From a virus: DNA of 5,329 nucleotides. Both the position numbers and the translations under genes were made by a program. This document shows positions 1-5,329 of the stretch, one piece after another. The notes below the pieces were generated by a model. That model was given only the letters and a program-made list of their open reading frames with translations, did no database searches and was not told the DNA's origin. The stretch covers positions 1 to 5,329 of IMG/VR virus record IMGVR_UViG_3300045988_044527. One strand, given 5' to 3'. Position 1 is the stretch's first letter. Each line of letters begins with the position of its first letter.

Positions 1-99
1 ATTTTTTTATGCGTCCTCGCTTGGTTCGCTACTACGGCCCTGATTACGATAATTTGAAACATGGTCGTGTCTATCAGGTTCATTGTCTTTACTCCCATG
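1..99. repeat. Terminal redundancy: exact copy of 5231-5329, indicating a circular genome of 5,230 nt written with overlap
   Basis: Base-by-base comparison shows positions 1-99 are identical to 5231-5329, which is the signature of a circular contig. This is not a biological direct repeat. Confidence 0.95.
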
Positions 100-167
100 G
101 CTTCATGCTGATTGATGATCACAACGAAAAGGCATATGTTTATGCCGGAAATTGTGAGGTGCTATGA
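9..167 (+). CDS. Hypothetical small protein, 52 aa (MRPRLVRYYGPDYDNLKHGRVYQVHCLYSHGFMLIDDHNEKAYVYAGNCEVL); unknown function
   Basis: The ATG at 9 is preceded across the circular junction by GAGGTG (5225-5230) at 8-nt spacing and by the promoter. It ends at TGA 165-167, directly abutting the Rep GTG start in the same frame. I recognise no family for it. Confidence 0.55.
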   Translation: MRPRLVRYYGPDYDNLKHGRVYQVHCLYSHGFMLIDDHNEKAYVYAGNCEVL

Positions 168-1169
168 GTGCCTTGCTATCATCCCATTTACGCCGTTCGT
201 ATCGGTACTAAGGAAAACGGAAAAGCTGAGTTGAAAATGCTTGGTTATACCCCGGATGACCGTGAAACCTATGTCGAATGGCACAACCACCGCTATCCTC
301 GTTCCGCTCTCGTTCCACTGCCCTGTGGTCAGTGTATCGGATGCCGCATTGACTATTCAAGGCAATGGGCAAACCGTTGTTTGCTTGAACTTAAGTACCA
401 TGATTCCGCTTGGTTCTGCACGTTCACCTATGATGATGACCACGTTCCTCGTACTTATTACCCTGATCCTGAAACTGGTGAAGCTATCCCAGCTTTGACC
501 TTGCAAAAGCGTGATTTCCAACTTTTGATGAAGCGTATTCGGAAGAAATTTGAAAATGATAAAATTCGGTTCTTCATGTCCGGCGAGTACGGCTCTCAGA
601 CGTTCCGGCCACATTATCACGCTATTTTGTTCGGTTTGCACTTGGATGATCTCCAACCCTATAAAACTGTCAAGGAAGGAGGTGAGTATTACACTTATTA
701 TAACAGTCCCTCTCTCCAAGAGTGTTGGCCTTATGGCTATGTAGTTGTTGGTGAAGTCACGTGGGAATCCTGTGCTTACACTGCTCGCTACGTGATGAAA
801 AAGCTGAAAGGAAAGGAAGCTAAGTTTTATGCAGACCACAATATTCAGCCTGAGTTTACACTCATGTCCCGAAAGCCTGGGATTGCACGTCAGTATTTTG
901 ACGAAAACCCTCACTGCGTTGAAGAACAGTATATCAACGTTTCTACGCCGAAAGGCGGAAAAAAGTTCCGTCCGCCGAGGTACTACGATAAACTCTACGA
1001 CGTCGAATGCCCCGAAAAGTCCGCAGAGTTAAAAGCCCTACGTGCTAAGCTGGCCCAACAGGCCATGGAAGCTAAGTTGTCTAATACGTCTCTTGATTCC
1101 TATGAACTGAGAGACGTTGAAGAAGAAAAACAGTCCAACCGTTTAAAATCGTTAAGGAGGAATTTGTAA
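168..1169 (+). CDS. Replication initiation protein VP4 (rolling-circle HUH endonuclease, Microviridae Rep), GTG start
   Basis: The 333-aa ORF begins with the N-terminal C-x-x-P-x-x-A-x-R motif (MPCYHPIYAVR) typical of gokushovirus VP4. It has the cysteine cluster CGQCIGCR...C; RCR motif I FCTFTYDD (nt 414-437); HUH motif II PHYHAILFG (nt 609-635); and motif III with the paired tyrosines AYTARYVMKK (Y204 and Y208, nt 777-791), as in phiX174 gene A. The RBS GAGGTG at 156-161 lies 6 nt before the GTG at 168. Confidence 0.92.
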   Translation: MPCYHPIYAVRIGTKENGKAELKMLGYTPDDRETYVEWHNHRYPRSALVPLPCGQCIGCRIDYSRQWANRCLLELKYHDSAWFCTFTYDDDHVPRTYYPDPETGEAIPALTLQKRDFQLLMKRIRKKFENDKIRFFMSGEYGSQTFRPHYHAILFGLHLDDLQPYKTVKEGGEYYTYYNSPSLQECWPYGYVVVGEVTWESCAYTARYVMKKLKGKEAKFYADHNIQPEFTLMSRKPGIARQYFDENPHCVEEQYINVSTPKGGKKFRPPRYYDKLYDVECPEKSAELKALRAKLAQQAMEAKLSNTSLDSYELRDVEEEKQSNRLKSLRRNL

Positions 1170-1276
1170 TGAAAATGCTCAAGCGTAAAGACAAGAAGGT
1201 GTTTTCCCGAACCGCCGCTAAGTCCAAGAAAATTAACATCGCTCCGAAAATCTTCCGTGGAGGTATCCGGCTGTGA
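1169..1276 (+). CDS. Small highly basic DNA-binding protein, 35 aa (MKMLKRKDKKVFSRTAAKSKKINIAPKIFRGGIRL); J/VP8-like DNA-packaging protein
   Basis: The ATG at 1169 overlaps the Rep stop (TAATG). A strong RBS AAGGAGG at 1154-1160 sits 8 nt upstream. Of its 35 residues, 13 are Lys or Arg. It is absent from the ORF track, which omits ORFs this short. It is analogous to phiX174 J and gokushovirus VP8. Confidence 0.7.
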   Translation: MKMLKRKDKKVFSRTAAKSKKINIAPKIFRGGIRL

Positions 1277-1398
1277 GTTCTGTTTCTGTTTGTGTTGATG
1301 GTGTTCCCGTGGCTGTTGTTCCTTTGTGGATGATTAAACATGCCGTTGAGGATGCTATTGCTCAGTATCCTGATAAGAAAATTACTGTGGAGGTCTGA
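1273..1398 (+). CDS. Possible small ORF, 41 aa with a GTG start (VSSVSVCVDGVPVAVVPLWMIKHAVEDAIAQYPDKKITVEV); hypothetical
   Basis: The GTG at 1273 overlaps the stop of the basic protein (CTGTGA). GGAGG at 1258-1262 lies 10 nt upstream. It ends at TGA 1396-1398, just before the next gene. There is no recognisable homology, so the call is weak. Confidence 0.3.
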   Translation: MSSVSVCVDGVPVAVVPLWMIKHAVEDAIAQYPDKKITVEV

Positions 1399-1402
1399 TT
1401 AT

Positions 1403-1654
1403 ATGATTACTGGTATCTATGCTATCAAGGACGCTAAGTCCACGTTCATGCCCTGCACCGTTGATGTAAATGATGCTACTGCCGTCCGCAACTTTGAACA
1501 TGCTGTGAGACAGCCTGATTCCCTGCTTGCATCTCACCCCAACGATTTTGCTTTGTATAAGCTCGCCACCTTTGACAACGTCGGCGGCTATATTGAGCCG
1601 CTGAATCCTCCCCGCCAGCTTTGTGACGCCGCCCAGTGCATTGTAAAGGAGTGA
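1403..1654 (+). CDS. Hypothetical protein, 84 aa (possibly the VP5-like non-structural protein of gokushoviruses)
   Basis: The ATG at 1403 has GGAGG at 1389-1393 with 9-nt spacing. Its size and its position between Rep and the structural genes fit VP5. The same frame is open back to an ATG at 1340 (104 aa with a hydrophobic N-terminus), but that ATG has only a weak RBS. The functional call is tentative. Confidence 0.55.
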   Translation: MITGIYAIKDAKSTFMPCTVDVNDATAVRNFEHAVRQPDSLLASHPNDFALYKLATFDNVGGYIEPLNPPRQLCDAAQCIVKE

Positions 1655-1658
1655 CAAT

Positions 1659-2138
1659 ATGGAGTTTAAAACTCAGTATGATGCCCGTGACCGCATCTTT
1701 TCTGACCCCGGTTCTCCTGAGCATATCACCTATGCCGGTCACTATGATGAAAAAGGCCGTGTAGTGCTTGAGGAATCCGGTCGTGAAAACCTGTATGACT
1801 ATATTCAGTCCTACGCCGAAAGCTGTGATATTCACGTTCTCATGAAGCGTTACGCCAACGGCGATGTTGACGCCCTTTCTCAGAAGCAGGGTTTCTATGG
1901 TGATTTCCTCGATTTCCCCAAGACCTATGCCGAAGCCCTCAACCACATGAATGAAATGGAGCGTCAGTTTTTGGCCCTGCCTGTGGAAACTCGTGAGAAG
2001 TTCGGCAACAGCTTCACGGAGTTTCTTGCCGCTTCTGGTGAAGCTGATTTCCTCGAACGGCTCGGAATTAAGAAAGAGCCTGCTGAGCCTGTCCCTGCTA
2101 TTCCTCAGGTTGAAACTAAGGAGGTTACAAAAGAATGA
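1659..2138 (+). CDS. VP3-like internal scaffolding protein, 159 aa
   Basis: The ATG at 1659 is preceded by the RBS AAGGAG (1647-1652), and the upstream gene's stop lies within that RBS. Its size (~150 aa), acidic character and position immediately upstream of the capsid gene fit gokushovirus VP3. The stop overlaps the VP1 start (ATGA). Confidence 0.6.
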   Translation: MEFKTQYDARDRIFSDPGSPEHITYAGHYDEKGRVVLEESGRENLYDYIQSYAESCDIHVLMKRYANGDVDALSQKQGFYGDFLDFPKTYAEALNHMNEMERQFLALPVETREKFGNSFTEFLAASGEADFLERLGIKKEPAEPVPAIPQVETKEVTKE

Positions 2139-3823
2139 ACAGAAATACCGAATCTCATTTCAGTTTGTCCCCCCATGTAGATATCTCTCGTTCTCGCTTT
2201 GACCGCTCTGCATCCCTCAAGACCTCGTTCAATGCCGGTGACGTAGTCCCTTTTTTCCTCGAAGAAGTGTTACCCGGCGATACGTTCAGCGTAGACACAT
2301 CCAAGGTTGTCCGTATGCAGACTTTGCTCACCCCTATGATGGACAACGTATATCTGGATACCTACTATTTCTTTGTCCCGAATCGTCTTGTGTGGGATCA
2401 TTGGAAGGAGTTTTGTGGTGAAAACACTGAGAGTGCATGGATTCCGCAGACTGAGTATACTATGCCCCAGATTACAAGCCCAGCTGGTCAAGGATGGAGT
2501 GTTGGAACTCTTGCTGACTATTTTGGCATCCCAACTGGCGTTGCTGGTCTCTCTGTGTCTGCTCTTCCCTTCCGGGCTTATGCCCTGATCATGAATGAGT
2601 GGTTTAGAGATCAGAACCTCCAAGATCCTCTTGTTGTGCCCACGGATGATAGTACCGTGGCTGGTGTCAATTCTGGCACGTTTGTGACAGATGTGGCTAA
2701 GGGCGGTAAGCCCTTCATCGCTGCCAAGTACCATGACTATTTCACTTCTGCTCTCCCCGCTCCGCAGAAAGGCCCGGATGTAACGATTCCTGTTGCACAG
2801 GCTGGTAGTTATCCGGTTGTCTCTCTTAATCAATATGTTGATTCTAGTAAGTCTAATGCTTCTGTTGCTTGGCAAAAATTAGATGGATCGGGTTTTTCTT
2901 TGCTTGACGGTTTAGGTATTGCTGTTGGTCAAAAACCTCGTAGCGGTGGCTTTGATTCTAAGTATTTTTCCGGTTCTATGACTGTTTCGGAAGGTGCTAG
3001 CGCAGGTTGGGATATTGCCCCGGCTAACCTTTGGGCTGTTGCTGATGGTAACGCCGCCGCCGCTACCATTAACCAGCTTCGTCTTGCTTTCCAGATTCAA
3101 AAATTCTATGAGCGTCAGGCCCGTGGCGGTTCTCGCTATACGGAAGTTGTTCGCTCCTTCTTTGGTGTGACCTCCCCGGATGCTCGCTTACAGCGGCCTG
3201 AATATCTCGGCGGTAACAGAGTTCCTATCAATGTCAATCAGATTGTACAGCAGTCCGGCACTCAGTCCGGCACTACGCCCCAAGGTACTGTTGTTGGTCA
3301 GTCCCTTACCACGGATAAGCATTCCGACTTTACCAAGTCTTTTACGGAGCACGGTTTGATTATCGGTGTTATGGTTGCCCGTTATGACCACACCTATCAG
3401 CAGGGCCTTAGCCGCCTGTGGTCTCGCAAGGATAAGTTTGATTTCTATTGGCCCGTTTTCGCTAACATCGGTGAACAGGCTATCAAGAACAAGGAAATCT
3501 TTGCACAAGGCAATGATAAGGATAACGAAGTCTTTGGCTATCAGGAAGCATGGGCCGAATACCGCTATAAGCCTAATATGGTGACCGGAGAAATGAGGTC
3601 TGCGTATGCCCAATCTTTGGATGTTTGGCATCTGGCTGATGATTACAGCACCCTTCCTTCTTTATCTGATTCGTGGATCAGAGAGGACAAGGCAAACATT
3701 GATCGTGTTTTGGCTGTCACATCTGCTGTTAGTAATCAGTTTTTTGCTGACATCTACGTGAAGAACTATTGTACCCGGCCTATGCCTATGTACAGCGTCC
3801 CCGGCCTGATTGATCATCATTGA
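2135..3823 (+). CDS. Major capsid protein VP1 (Microviridae F-like), 562 aa
   Basis: The N-terminal region RSRFDRS...LPGDTF...MDNVYLDTYYFFVPNRLVWDHWKEFCGE matches the conserved gokushovirus VP1 and phiX174 F N-terminal blocks (LPGDTF, YFFVP.R..W, W.KF.GE). The RBS AAGGAGG at 2118-2124 is 10 nt upstream. Its length is typical of gokushovirus VP1, which carries a large insertion loop. Confidence 0.95.
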   Translation: MNRNTESHFSLSPHVDISRSRFDRSASLKTSFNAGDVVPFFLEEVLPGDTFSVDTSKVVRMQTLLTPMMDNVYLDTYYFFVPNRLVWDHWKEFCGENTESAWIPQTEYTMPQITSPAGQGWSVGTLADYFGIPTGVAGLSVSALPFRAYALIMNEWFRDQNLQDPLVVPTDDSTVAGVNSGTFVTDVAKGGKPFIAAKYHDYFTSALPAPQKGPDVTIPVAQAGSYPVVSLNQYVDSSKSNASVAWQKLDGSGFSLLDGLGIAVGQKPRSGGFDSKYFSGSMTVSEGASAGWDIAPANLWAVADGNAAAATINQLRLAFQIQKFYERQARGGSRYTEVVRSFFGVTSPDARLQRPEYLGGNRVPINVNQIVQQSGTQSGTTPQGTVVGQSLTTDKHSDFTKSFTEHGLIIGVMVARYDHTYQQGLSRLWSRKDKFDFYWPVFANIGEQAIKNKEIFAQGNDKDNEVFGYQEAWAEYRYKPNMVTGEMRSAYAQSLDVWHLADDYSTLPSLSDSWIREDKANIDRVLAVTSAVSNQFFADIYVKNYCTRPMPMYSVPGLIDHH

Positions 3824-3828
3824 TTCAT

Positions 3829-3860
3829 AGAGGGGGCTTTTGCCCCCTCTTGTTTTTTCT
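3829..3860 (+). terminator. Rho-independent terminator/attenuator between VP1 and VP2
   Basis: A perfect 9-bp GC-rich stem, AGAGGGGGC (3829-3837) pairing with GCCCCCTCT (3842-3850), has a TTTT loop and is followed by TGTTTTTTCT (3851-3860). It lies 5 nt after the VP1 stop. It is analogous to the post-F terminator of phiX174. Confidence 0.75.
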
Positions 3861-3876
3861 GAAAGGAGTTGTTATA

Positions 3877-4740
3877 ATGGCATTTGGTACCACTACTTCC
3901 GCTTACGAAATGGATGGTGTCGGAGCCGCTCCGGCTGTCAACCGTGCCGCTGATCAGATCGCTGGTTTGAAAGGTGTTGCACAAGCTAATTCTGCTTTTA
4001 ACGCTGAGCAAGCTAAAGTTCAGCGTGATTGGACAGAGCAAATGACTGCAAAGCAGATGGACTTTAATGCCGCCGAGGCCGCTAAAAATCGTCAGTGGCA
4101 AGAAATGATGTCCAATACTGCCCATCAAAGAGAAGTCCGTGACCTTATGGCCGCTGGCTTGAATCCTGTTCTTTCTGCTATGAATGGCAACGGCGCCGCC
4201 GTTGGTTCCGGTGCGACCGCTTCAGCGTCCCTTGGAAGCGGTTCTAAGGCCGACGCAGATACAGCCGCTTCCGGTGCTATTGCTAACTTGCTCGGCTCCA
4301 TCTTGGGCGCTCAGACGGCGTTACAGAGTGCAAATATAAACGCCCGTACTCAGGAAGCCGTTGCAGACAAGTACACCGCTATGGAGCATATTGTTGCTCA
4401 GATTTCTGCCGCCGCTGGTATTCGGCAAGCTGGTATTCATGCTGGTGCTACTCGTGATGCCGCCGCTATGAGTTCTTCTGCTACTCGGTATGCCGCTGGT
4501 CAGGCCGCTTTAGCGTCTATCTTTGGTTCTTCCGTGAATTCTGCCGCTACTCGGTATGCTGCGGATCAACATTTGGAAGGCTCCAAGTATGGAGCTGATA
4601 AGTCCTATGACGCTTCTAAGTATGCTTCGGATATCAATTGGGATAAGGCTGTTCATTTTGGTAACGGTAGTTTTATGAATCAGATGGCCGGAAATATTGG
4701 TTTGTCGCTTTCAAGTCTTTTAAAAATGATTGGAGGTTAA
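3877..4740 (+). CDS. VP2 minor capsid / DNA pilot protein (H-like), 287 aa
   Basis: The ATG at 3877 has AAAGGAG at 3862-3868. The ORF is open from 3820, but that stretch overlaps the terminator hairpin. The protein is Ala/Gly-rich and carries the conserved block NRQWQEMMSNTAHQREVRDLMAAGLNPVLS characteristic of gokushovirus VP2. Confidence 0.85.
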   Translation: MAFGTTTSAYEMDGVGAAPAVNRAADQIAGLKGVAQANSAFNAEQAKVQRDWTEQMTAKQMDFNAAEAAKNRQWQEMMSNTAHQREVRDLMAAGLNPVLSAMNGNGAAVGSGATASASLGSGSKADADTAASGAIANLLGSILGAQTALQSANINARTQEAVADKYTAMEHIVAQISAAAGIRQAGIHAGATRDAAAMSSSATRYAAGQAALASIFGSSVNSAATRYAADQHLEGSKYGADKSYDASKYASDINWDKAVHFGNGSFMNQMAGNIGLSLSSLLKMIGG

Positions 4741-4742
4741 GT

Positions 4743-4823
4743 ATGGAAAGTATCATCATGGTTTTGTCTTTGTCCGTAGTCACGGCCGCTGCTCTAAAAA
4801 TCATAAAAGAAATTTTTTCTTAA
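4743..4823 (+). CDS. Small hydrophobic peptide, 26 aa (MESIIMVLSLSVVTAAALKIIKEIFS); single predicted transmembrane helix; candidate lysis/toxin-like membrane peptide
   Basis: The ATG at 4743 is 2 nt after the VP2 stop. GGAGG at 4731-4735 gives ideal 7-nt spacing. A TAA stop lies at 4821-4823. It was not in the ORF track, which omits ORFs this short. A hydrophobic core of about 19 residues is followed by a charged tail, KIIKEIFS. Confidence 0.5.
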   Translation: MESIIMVLSLSVVTAAALKIIKEIFS

Positions 4824-4825
4824 AA

Positions 4826-4840
4826 AGCGGCGTCAGCCGC
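4826..4840. other. Short GC hairpin (GCGGC-GTCA-GCCGC); it resembles an intrinsic terminator on the minus strand only
   Basis: A 5-bp stem is preceded on the + strand by AAAAA and TTTTTT, so on the minus strand a U-tract follows the hairpin. On the + strand the hairpin is followed by CAAAAG, which gives no U-tract. Confidence 0.4.
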
Positions 4841-4845
4841 CAAAA

Positions 4846-4875
4846 GAGACCCACGGTCTAAACGCCGTGGGTCTC
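4846..4875. repeat. Perfect 11-bp inverted repeat forming a hairpin (GAGACCCACGG / CCGTGGGTCTC, 8-nt loop)
   Basis: Reverse-complementarity was verified directly: left arm 4846-4856, right arm 4865-4875. No U-tract follows on either strand. Confidence 0.8.
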
Positions 4876-4904
4876 CGCCTGTACGTCCATTTACATTAGG
4901 CGTA

Positions 4905-4947
4905 CACTCAGCACAGTTAACTCTCTTGATGTTAACTGTGCTGAGTG
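4905..4947. repeat. Perfect 17-bp inverted repeat forming a hairpin (CACTCAGCACAGTTAAC / GTTAACTGTGCTGAGTG, 9-nt loop); candidate ssDNA origin or packaging structure
   Basis: Left arm 4905-4921, loop 4922-4930, right arm 4931-4947, verified as exact reverse complements. It lies in the main non-coding region of an ssDNA genome. Confidence 0.8.
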
Positions 4948-5129
4948 ACACCAAAGGTCACTTTGCGTGTCATAGTAGAAGTTGCTTGCACATGTCTAGA
5001 ACGTATGCAGTATTTCAAGATAAAATGTTTAGTAGGAGACCCCCGTAGGATACAAGTTCCTAAAAAATAATAGATAATAAAGTTTAAAATTTATTGGTAA
5101 ACTGAAATAGAACTACATTCTTGGTTTCG

Positions 5130-5161
5130 TGCACATTTGTGCATTTAGCCTAGAACTAGGC
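5130..5161. promoter_or_regulatory. Two 14-bp palindromes upstream of the promoter (TGCACA-tt-TGTGCA and GCCTAG-aa-CTAGGC); candidate operator sites
   Basis: Both have 6-bp arms around a 2-nt spacer, at 5130-5143 and 5148-5161. They lie 25-55 nt upstream of the -35 element. Confidence 0.3.
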
Positions 5162-5185
5162 CGAAATCTTTAGTAAATATGCAAA

Positions 5186-5214
5186 TTGATATTTTTGTTC
5201 AATCGTACTATTAT
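5186..5214 (+). promoter_or_regulatory. Sigma70-type promoter TTGATA-(17 nt)-TATTAT driving the small ORF and VP4
   Basis: The -35 TTGATA at 5186-5191, a 17-nt spacer, and the -10 TATTAT at 5209-5214 sit in an AT-rich intergenic region. The predicted transcription start is near 5221. The RBS GAGGTG at 5225-5230 and the ATG at 5239 (= position 9 on the circle) lie just downstream. Confidence 0.6.
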
Positions 5215-5230
5215 CACCTTATATGAGGTG

Positions 5231-5329
5231 ATTTTTTTATGCGTCCTCGCTTGGTTCGCTACTACGGCCCTGATTACGATAATTTGAAACATGGTCGTGT
5301 CTATCAGGTTCATTGTCTTTACTCCCATG
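5231..5329. repeat. Second copy of the terminal overlap; contains a partial duplicate of the 52-aa ORF start (ATG at 5239)
   Basis: Identical to 1-99. The ATG at 5239 corresponds to the ATG at position 9. Confidence 0.95.

Follow-up and report, generated by a model that had tools for sequence, protein, structure and literature searches.

The 5,329-nt stretch of viral DNA analyzed here (positions 1–5,329 of IMG/VR record IMGVR_UViG_3300045988_044527; hereafter the window) holds the entire circular genome (5230 nt) of a gokushovirus (Microviridae): bases 1–99 are an exact repeat of 5231–5329 (99 nt terminal repeat), so that the window represents one complete circular genome with an assembly overlap. 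The sole long non-coding stretch (4824–5238) contains a pair of perfect hairpins within its first third, and the hairpin cluster at 4827–4972 probably constitutes the replication-origin region of this phage. The larger hairpin (17-bp stem, 4905–4947) is, judging from comparative sequence evidence, very probably the viral-strand (plus) origin of rolling-circle replication, with a nick predicted between G4928 and A4929, a signal common to most gokushoviruses; the smaller one (11-bp stem, 4846–4875) is a separately selected accessory structure.

Structure and stability of the two hairpins

An original prediction made from the sequence of the window alone had placed two exact inverted repeats between the last gene and the promoter, and both were found as described: (i) an 11-bp stem with arms GAGACCCACGG (4846–4856) and CCGTGGGTCTC (4865–4875) enclosing an 8-nt loop, and (ii) a 17-bp stem with arms CACTCAGCACAGTTAAC (4905–4921) and GTTAACTGTGCTGAGTG (4931–4947) enclosing the 9-nt loop TCTCTTGAT. 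The pair is located between the stop codon of the last open reading frame (ORF) at 4823 (VP2 already ends at 4740) and a sigma-70-like promoter at 5186–5214. Among 300 random genomes generated by a first-order Markov model with matching composition, only two had a longest perfect stem (loop of 3–12 nt) of at least 11 bp, and none exceeded 12 bp; the 17-bp stem is therefore far above chance and the 11-bp stem unusual (~0.7 %).

Folding as single-stranded DNA (ssDNA), proposed at the time as a check, yields −13.3 kcal/mol (z-score −6.4) for the 11-bp and −19.8 kcal/mol (z −9.1) for the 17-bp hairpin, and the fold of 4800–5000 (−52.7 kcal/mol, z −10.3) comprises about five successive hairpins. 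Both stems lack a subsequent T/U run (tails CGCCTGTACG and ACACCAAAGG), and the terminator scan lists neither of them, in agreement with the earlier view that they are unlikely to be terminators; the combination of GC-rich stem and U-tract that characterizes intrinsic terminators is found in neither of them.

Conservation of the 17-bp hairpin among gokushoviruses

Blastn searches with the whole intergenic region yielded end-to-end matches in close relatives only, and in more than 100 distant microvirus records the 17-bp hairpin alone was matched (83–94 % identity). An 81-nt query around this hairpin matched 227 GenBank microvirus records of human, pig, lemur, rodent, bee, blackfly, sea-squirt, plant-associated and freshwater origin. 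The element stands directly before Rep in six of six annotated records, the preceding gene being variable (VP2, VP3 or a peptidase). Its common layout consists of a 5' arm (most commonly ..GCACAGTTAAC), a loop ending in CTTGAT, a 3' arm starting with GTTAACTGTGC and the subsequent flank RRSTGACACC; ACTGT and TGACAC are present in most elements. In the window, the loop with its CTTG^AT core (predicted Rep nick marked) occupies 4922–4930, and the 3' arm together with the TGACACC flank (4931–4952) forms the conserved sequence 3' of the nick that presumably determines Rep binding.

Three patterns with constraints on loop, 3' arm and flank alone, the 5' flank being left free, retrieved 183 unique elements from IMG/VR contigs of microvirus size (3.5–9 kb). 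The unconstrained 5' flank pairs perfectly with the 3' arm (Watson–Crick, at least 7 bp) in 84 % of them, with a median of 9 bp, compared to stems of at least 7 bp in 0.25 % of shuffled 5' flanks. Stem sequences diverge between lineages, always complementarily (e.g., GTAGAC/GTCTAC, GTACAC/GTGTAC, GTACGT/ACGTAC and GTTCCC/GGGAAC; further variants are ACTCGTGCCCATTAC/GTAATGGGCACGAGT, CTAGCGTATAACAG/CTGTTATACGCTAG of Chp2, as well as GTTAACTGTGC and GTCTACTGTGC). Compensatory changes, which the original prediction had named as a test of both stems, occur on both sides at 15 of the 17 pairs in an alignment of 66 non-redundant elements (A3), amounting to 140 compensatory cells (48 ± 6 shuffled) and a covariation score of 0.344 (0.131 shuffled, 0.05–0.11 with slid partners). 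Within the window's own clade the 17-bp stem is nearly invariant, a double compensatory change being present in one relative (L046; numbers with the prefix L denote sequences used for comparison). Stems are 96 % Watson–Crick, and G.T mismatches (31) are about as frequent as A.C mismatches (25; p = 0.5), which argues for DNA pairing and against an RNA helix.

An unbiased sample of 80 loci, picked by Rep protein similarity alone, harbours the element in 70 cases (55 strict, 14 with divergent stem and the same loop and flank, plus L286). All copies in these loci are on the Rep-coding strand, most of them 190–650 nt upstream of the Rep match. The cultured phages Chp2, phiMH2K, SpV4 and Chp1 each possess a perfect hairpin of 9–14 bp with CTTG in the loop: Chp2 with a 14-bp stem, loop tctaCTTGat and flank gtgatag; phiMH2K with an 11-bp stem and loop ..ctaCTTGttgtaa; SpV4 with a 10-bp stem, loop attaCTTGttata and flank ttgacgaca; and Chp1 with a 9-bp stem, loop cctCTTGgct and flank gagcgacac. 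According to the respective records, the hairpins of Chp2, phiMH2K and Chp1 are intergenic and located before Rep; the record of SpV4 has no annotation other than the capsid gene. In the GenBank record of Chp1, four other hairpin-like structures (h1–h4) are annotated, not the one at 2750–2777.

A variable stem joined to a loop and 3' flank that do not vary, confined to one strand beside Rep and shared by phages of unrelated hosts, points to a site read by the phage initiator and not by host priming enzymes or a dimeric repressor.

In several IMG/VR contigs (L012, L021, L044, L226, L295, L298, L301, L324 and L332) the origin element is present twice, either with a spacing of about one genome length or once at each contig end. 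Such contigs represent circular genomes assembled as concatemers or with terminal redundancy; the flanks of the two copies are slightly different in L012 and L021. The exact clade-specific pattern has no match in bacterial genomes, and the consensus element none in complete E. coli genomes, so that the tractable enterogokushovirus system yielded no confirmation of it. A degenerate origin pattern was found in five contigs of bacterial metagenome-assembled genomes (L344–L348), among them a 44-kb Alphaproteobacteria contig (sheep rectum), a 12.9-kb Micavibrio and a 14.6-kb Oscillospiraceae contig; these may be integrated or mis-binned gokushoviruses and could give clues to hosts.

Similarity to the phiX174 origin and the cognate Rep protein

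The phiX174 origin comprises 30 nt, is nicked between G4305 and A4306, and reads CAACTTG^ATATTAATAACACTATAGACCAC. The nick-proximal 14 nt of the 17-bp element match this mapped origin (CAACTTG^ATATTAAT). A weight matrix built from the 14 nick-proximal gokushovirus columns (TACTTGATGTTAAC) was scored over 10,772 phiX174 positions on both strands; its best match, AACTTGATATTAAT at 4300, is the annotated origin (13.7 bits versus 9.0 for the next best) and is identical to TACTTGATGTTAAC in 11 of 14 positions. Correspondingly, loop plus start of the 3' arm read TCTCTTGATGTTAA in the window and CAACTTGATATTAA in phiX174. The phiX174 origin is missed by a matrix of the right half and comes no higher than 4th with the full-length matrix. 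The latter scores highest in phiX174 at 3905–3934 (L267; ...GGATTGACACC), overlapping the −35 element TTGACA of the pA promoter; the gokushovirus flank TGACAC represents 5/6 of a −35 hexamer, and no suitably spaced −10 element follows in the window.

The cognate Rep (VP4) is encoded at 237–1169 on the plus strand (frame open from GTG 168) and is the HUH endonuclease predicted to act on the 17-bp hairpin. It matches Pfam PF23343 (1e-17) and contains the HUH motif RPHYHAILF as well as the two-tyrosine motif AYTARYVMKK (YxxxY), both invariant in the Rep alignment. An HUH motif plus two tyrosines four residues apart is the arrangement of protein A of phiX174. Gokushovirus element and phiX174 (Bullavirinae) origin share family, type of Rep, a near-identical nick core, location on the viral (Rep-coding) strand and a conserved footprint extending a few nt 5' and ~24 nt 3' of the nick, in which the gokushovirus 3' arm plus flank corresponds in position to the binding part of phiX174. 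They differ in that the phiX174 origin is located inside the Rep gene, whereas the gokushovirus site is intergenic (539 nt upstream of the window's Rep ATG) and presented in the loop of a covarying stem. Moreover, the distal half is unrelated: the spacer and binding sequence of phiX174 (...CACTATAGACCAC; distal block ACTATAGACCAC) is replaced by ACTGTG..TGACACC.

With respect to architecture, the 17-bp hairpin resembles the stem-loop origins of CRESS-DNA viruses (a nonanucleotide in the loop) and the double-strand origins of pT181-type plasmids, where likewise an invariant nick motif occupies the 3'-ward part of the loop, the stem is maintained through complementarity and not sequence, a Rep gene lies next to it and an HUH endonuclease needs a single-stranded substrate. 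Different from these are the loop motif and the Rep lineage (two tyrosines and no superfamily 3 helicase domain) of gokushoviruses, as well as the single TGACACC block: no significant direct repeats (iterons) flank the hairpin.

A second exact copy of the loop sequence TCTCTTGAT (0.07 copies expected) is present in the Rep gene at 1089–1097, within a 7-bp hairpin (ACGTCTC/GAGACGT, 1086–1117). It was dismissed as coincidence, because close relatives vary it at synonymous sites.

Selection on the 11-bp hairpin and its possible role

Among 24 clade members, the 11-bp hairpin displays both-side changes at six of its 11 pairs, with 99.6 % of cells paired and a freely varying loop. The exchanges are G-C to A-T at 4846/4875, A-T to T-A at 4847/4874, G-C to A-T at 4848/4873, A-T to C-G and to T-A at 4849/4872, C-G to G-C at 4850/4871 (in six sequences) and A-T to C-G at 4853/4868. 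This degree of covariation was reached by none of 500 shuffles, and slid controls were only 25–40 % paired. The hairpin's sequence is clade-specific; its location is 29 nt 5' of the origin stem.

Gokushoviruses in general possess a comparable structure, namely a GC-rich, stable hairpin that lacks a T-tract and lies just 5' of the origin hairpin. When the 55 nt upstream of the origin arm were compared with windows of the same genome in 202 unique elements, the median z was −2.3, and 61 % of these stretches belonged to the most stable 5 % of windows. The 166 strong upstream hairpins have 65 % GC and a median gap of 14 nt to the origin arm, and only 15 of them (9 %) are followed by a T-run. Hence, the 11-bp hairpin is an accessory structure selected separately from the origin and defined by shape rather than sequence.

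As to its role, a complementary-strand priming signal ranks first among the possible assignments, albeit slightly short of an even chance. Such an origin would be expected as a stable, covarying, non-coding hairpin in the viral strand, which is what the 11-bp element presents. In rolling-circle plasmids and Ff phages, the single-strand origins are situated just 5' of the nick; being immediately 5' of the predicted nick, the 11-bp hairpin would be the last part of the viral strand to be displaced. It resembles plasmid single-strand origins (sso) and the complementary-strand origins of G4, phiX174 and Ff phages in being stable, conserved in structure and placed just 5' of the nick, but has no sequence similarity to any curated family. 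The RS_B/CS-6 motif of ssoA-type origins (TAGCGT) is absent, no TAGCG being present in 4824–4975, and an Rfam scan of the whole window returned one sub-threshold chance match (BSnc120, 21 bits versus a gathering score of 114).

A role at the RNA level is rather unlikely, though it deserves more weight than the further alternatives considered below: the 11-bp hairpin, possibly together with the neighbouring 5-bp hairpin, could act as a U-tract-less partial terminator, pause site or 3'-end stabilizer of the structural transcripts. It is transcribed, begins 23 nt past the last stop codon, is GC-rich and very stable as RNA; phiX174 has terminator hairpins after its structural genes, and in 15 of 166 other gokushoviruses a T-run follows the corresponding upstream hairpin. 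However, a U-tract is lacking here although the canonical terminators of this genome (3829–3850 and 5213–5239) have T-runs, and 91 % of the equivalent hairpins, at their median distance of 14 nt from the origin arm, are likewise devoid of it.

The sequence GAGACCC of the 11-bp stem recurs at 5036–5042, as had been pointed out. The recurrence is real, but as a signal it did not hold up, being roughly what chance provides for a 7-mer in 5.2 kb. Relatives with a GAGAGCC stem retain GAGACCC at 5036, and the region is deleted in three others (L066, L094 and L155); since the second copy does not covary with the stem and is lost in these three relatives, the repeat is regarded as coincidental.

Alternative interpretations

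That the hairpins belong to the replication apparatus of an ssDNA phage, as the original prediction held, is supported. Its leading idea, however, viz. that they are both complementary-strand (minus) origins for host primase, PriA or RNA polymerase of the G4 or M13 type, is improbable for the pair. Both are stable in the viral strand, reside in the main intergenic region and show compensatory changes, and the 11-bp hairpin, lying just 5' of the predicted nick, conforms to the placement rule for the single-strand origins of rolling-circle plasmids; an invariant CTG 4 nt 3' of its stem recalls the G4 origin, but CTG is common by chance and the trinucleotide preference of primase is host-specific. 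The same reading was considered, and left undecided, for the Cap-Rep hairpins of very small microviruses (PMC9865509). In case of the 17-bp hairpin it is contradicted by the conserved sequence of loop and 3' flank next to a free stem, by the differing priming systems of Chlamydia, Spiroplasma, Bdellovibrio, gut and marine hosts, whose common factor is the phage Rep, and by the match of the loop to the phiX174 nick core and not to the phiX174 PriA site. Recognition by Rep, originally the last alternative named, is favoured for this hairpin by its loop, flank, Rep strand and CTTG^AT core, while complementary-strand initiation is retained as the plausible, leading reading of the 11-bp hairpin only; the earlier interpretation as a whole is accordingly partly supported.

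Conservation on one strand would suit recognition by the capsid or a Rep complex, and filamentous phages use an intergenic hairpin for packaging. A 17-bp hairpin serving for packaging only, with the nick located elsewhere, is nevertheless very improbable, considering that packaging in Microviridae is coupled to Rep-driven synthesis at the origin, as established for phiX174, that the nick-core match to phiX174 is specific, and that blastn with the intergenic region and the hairpin found no other conserved non-coding element in the window genome. Scarcely credible, finally, is a function of the inverted repeats as duplex operators of a dimeric regulator or as dif/att-like recombination sites. 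The arms are perfect palindromes in duplex DNA close to a promoter region, and dif-like sites occur in non-coding DNA of some gokushoviruses, which would be compatible with it; but arms that vary freely yet remain complementary around a conserved 17-bp hairpin loop are the opposite of an operator, the genome encodes neither regulator nor recombinase, the element is present in the strictly lytic Chp2, its layout is unlike the 11-6-11 arrangement of dif, and E. coli genomes contain no copy.

Several points weigh against the 17-bp hairpin as plus origin and the 11-bp hairpin as its accessory. The homology to the phiX174 origin is confined to ~14 nt, the distal half having no match, and the phiX174 origin, located inside gene A, is not known to be presented in a hairpin. 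Cleavage, the exact nick position and the need for the hairpin, including extrusion of the 17-bp repeat as a cruciform, are what we infer from the comparison. The A3 alignment was pre-selected for pairing, so its percentage of paired cells is not independent, the independent test being that of the free 5' flanks in the 183 elements; and since the pattern sampling fixed several columns, column-conservation values are inflated. The wobble counts reveal no strand asymmetry and hence do not distinguish the folding strand. Ten of the 80 Rep-picked loci, several of them partial contigs, lack the element, four with 70 % Rep identity (L272–L275) being among the loci not resolved for it, and in one clade (L288, L290, L292, L293, L296 and L315) it is found ~1.6 kb downstream of the Rep start. 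DNA and RNA roles of the 11-bp hairpin are inseparable by comparison, because mRNA and viral strand are identical, and its equivalent is terminator-like in 9 % of genomes.

The clade with the downstream element has a Rep 42–47 % identical to that of the window and the origin element CTTGATGTAACTGTTCCCACTGAC, at a different place in the gene order.

Proposed mechanism of replication

Based on the reading of the 17-bp hairpin as plus origin, replication may be envisaged as follows. The inverted repeat would fold in the supercoiled replicative form or in displaced ssDNA, thereby exposing the loop TCTCTTG^AT. Rep (VP4), as a two-tyrosine HUH endonuclease of the phiX174 protein A type, would recognize the TGACACC flank along with the conserved 3' arm, introduce a cut between G4928 and A4929 and become covalently joined to the 5' end at A4929, whereupon the 3'-OH of G4928 could prime rolling-circle synthesis by host enzymes. 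One round later, the second tyrosine would cut the regenerated hairpin, and the displaced strand would be ligated to a circle and subsequently packaged. The 11-bp hairpin might stay folded in viral DNA coated by single-strand-binding protein and, displaced last, could act in the manner of the sso of rolling-circle plasmids.

The order of elements (gene end, accessory hairpins, nick hairpin, AT-rich stretch and Rep promoter) resembles that of the Ff intergenic region. Conserved hairpins between Cap and Rep, with conserved loops and compensatory stems, were described in 2022 for reekeekee- and roodoodooviruses (PMC9865509); the authors left their function undecided, leaning to negative-strand initiation, and named no nick motif. 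Both sets are Microviridae intergenic hairpins before Rep with conserved loops and compensatory stems; they differ in that the former belong to other clades and were linked neither to the phiX174 nick core nor to a subfamily-wide spread.

One may speculate, as an assumption somewhat below an even chance, that most Gokushovirinae share one previously unannotated plus origin (a covarying hairpin with the loop YTACTTG^AT followed by ACTGTG..TGACACC) whose nick core is homologous to the phiX174 origin. The Microviridae origin would then be ancient; its place would have shifted between the Rep gene in Bullavirinae and the intergenic region in Gokushovirinae, with a change from linear to hairpin form, and the tightly coupled upstream GC-rich hairpin would be the matching minus origin in a two-origin module of ~100 nt. 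A rolling-circle origin is as such a known kind of element; the present variant and its subfamily-wide spread seem undescribed. Full-text searches yielded no description of a gokushovirus origin, the older papers on SpV4, Chp1, Chp2 and phiMH2K being outside their reach, so that prior mention is possible.

Gokushoviruses are among the most abundant ssDNA phages of gut and aquatic viromes. An origin of ~50 nt with a predicted nick would supply thousands of metagenomic genomes with a DNA-level marker and a natural zero point for their coordinates, offer VP4 biochemistry a substrate that can be tested directly, and form a basis for minimal replicons, phagemids and HUH-tag reagents. It would also connect the origin of phiX174 in evolutionary terms with hairpin-type origins in other rolling-circle replicons. 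Furthermore, intergenic hairpins are not all alike: origin, accessory hairpin and terminator can be separated by their conservation patterns.

Further hairpins of the cluster

Designated H0 to H4 in order on the plus strand, the hairpins of the cluster comprise the 11-bp (H1) and 17-bp (H3) structures and three minor ones. Directly 3' of the last ORF, H0 (4827–4840) is a 5-bp GC hairpin (GCGGC-GTCA-GCCGC; −6.8 kcal/mol as DNA, z −3.3) with both-side changes at three of five pairs in the clade alignment; read on the minus strand it is terminator-like, but no genes are encoded there. The H2 block CTGTACGTCCATTTACATTAGGCGTACA (4877–4906) contains a weak hairpin (TGTACG/CGTACA at 4880–4906; −5.0 kcal/mol, z −3.8) and overlaps the 17-bp origin stem by 2 nt. 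It is almost invariant, even in L001 and L155, whose intergenic regions are only ~77–84 % identical, and shows one compensatory change (in L151). The imperfect hairpin H4 (4946–4972; −8.9 kcal/mol, z −5.0) uses TGACAC as its 5' arm and has one compensatory pair in the clade. As a general feature, this downstream hairpin was rejected: an unusually stable downstream fold accompanies only 21 % of gokushovirus elements, indicating a lineage-specific trait.

Promoter, terminators and other intergenic features

The sigma-70-like promoter (TTGATA-17-TATTAT, 5186–5214, plus strand) precedes the operon of a small ORF and Rep; it is predicted from consensus only (10/12 matches) and is conserved in the clade. 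It is followed by a canonical terminator hairpin with a run of seven T (5213–5239, stem 5213–5232, plus strand; terminator scan, z −5.6), the arms of which are ATCACCTT and AGGTGAT, the 3' arm being identical with the Shine-Dalgarno sequence of the Rep operon (GAGGTGAT). This terminator is conserved, with a compensatory change from C/G to T/A in L141. Since it overlaps the promoter −10 element, RNA initiated at the promoter would lack the 5' arm; read-through structural transcripts would have a proper terminator downstream of the origin. A similar arrangement is known from the T_H terminator of phiX174, which overlaps the ribosome-binding site of gene A: both are terminator hairpins at the end of the structural transcripts, next to the Rep promoter, and provide with their 3' arm the ribosome-binding site of the Rep operon, but their sequences are unrelated, and in the window a 52-aa ORF precedes Rep. 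A second intrinsic terminator (AGAGGGGGC-TTTT-GCCCCCTCT, then TGTTTTTTCT; 3829–3860, hairpin 3829–3850, plus strand) directly 3' of VP1 would split VP1 from VP2 transcription. The 11-bp hairpin has no T-run, unlike these two terminators.

Beyond ~5204, close relatives display two alternative modules (L011, L036, L038, L053, L066, L094, L158, L162 and L177): one is of the window type (terminator hairpin plus 52-aa ORF), the other is G-rich (TAAGGGAAGGGCGAGCC...TTTTGACAAAGTGAACG...), and some contigs contain both. Such a distribution is suggestive of module exchange or recombination at the Rep-proximal intergenic end.

A palindrome (G-TGCACA-TT-TGTGCA-T, 5129–5144) is located ~45 nt upstream of the −35 element. 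Its flanking pair covaries (G..T in the window, T..A in L041, A..T in L001), and it may represent an operator or another small hairpin. Between origin hairpins and promoter, 5060–5100 is very AT-rich and contains the near-perfect palindrome AATAAAGTTTAAAATTTATT (5076–5095); its position fits an unwinding or bending element. The left part of this stretch loosely resembles one arm of a Firmicutes dif site, the other arm being unlike it; a dif-like site in 5056–5100 was rejected, as the arms match the B. subtilis dif in only 9/11 and 4/11 positions when compared by eye.

Gene content of the window

The genome is ~90 % identical to human-faecal gokushoviruses (e.g., OP971934, OP549869 and KT264760), and every gene of the window is on the plus strand. 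The 52-aa ORF (MRPRLVRYYG..., 9–167) upstream of Rep is the one in which the cut point of the circular genome falls. Rep is followed by genes for a small basic protein (1169–1275), VP5 (1403–1654), the scaffold protein VP3 (1659–2138), the capsid protein VP1 (2135–3823) and VP2 (3877–4740). The last ORF (4743–4823), located directly 3' of VP2 with its own Shine-Dalgarno sequence, encodes a hydrophobic product of 26 aa (MESIIMVLSLSVVTAAALKIIKEIFS) without Pfam match, which may be a small membrane or lysis peptide; in the relatives L135, L053 and L080 its slot holds quite different sequence.

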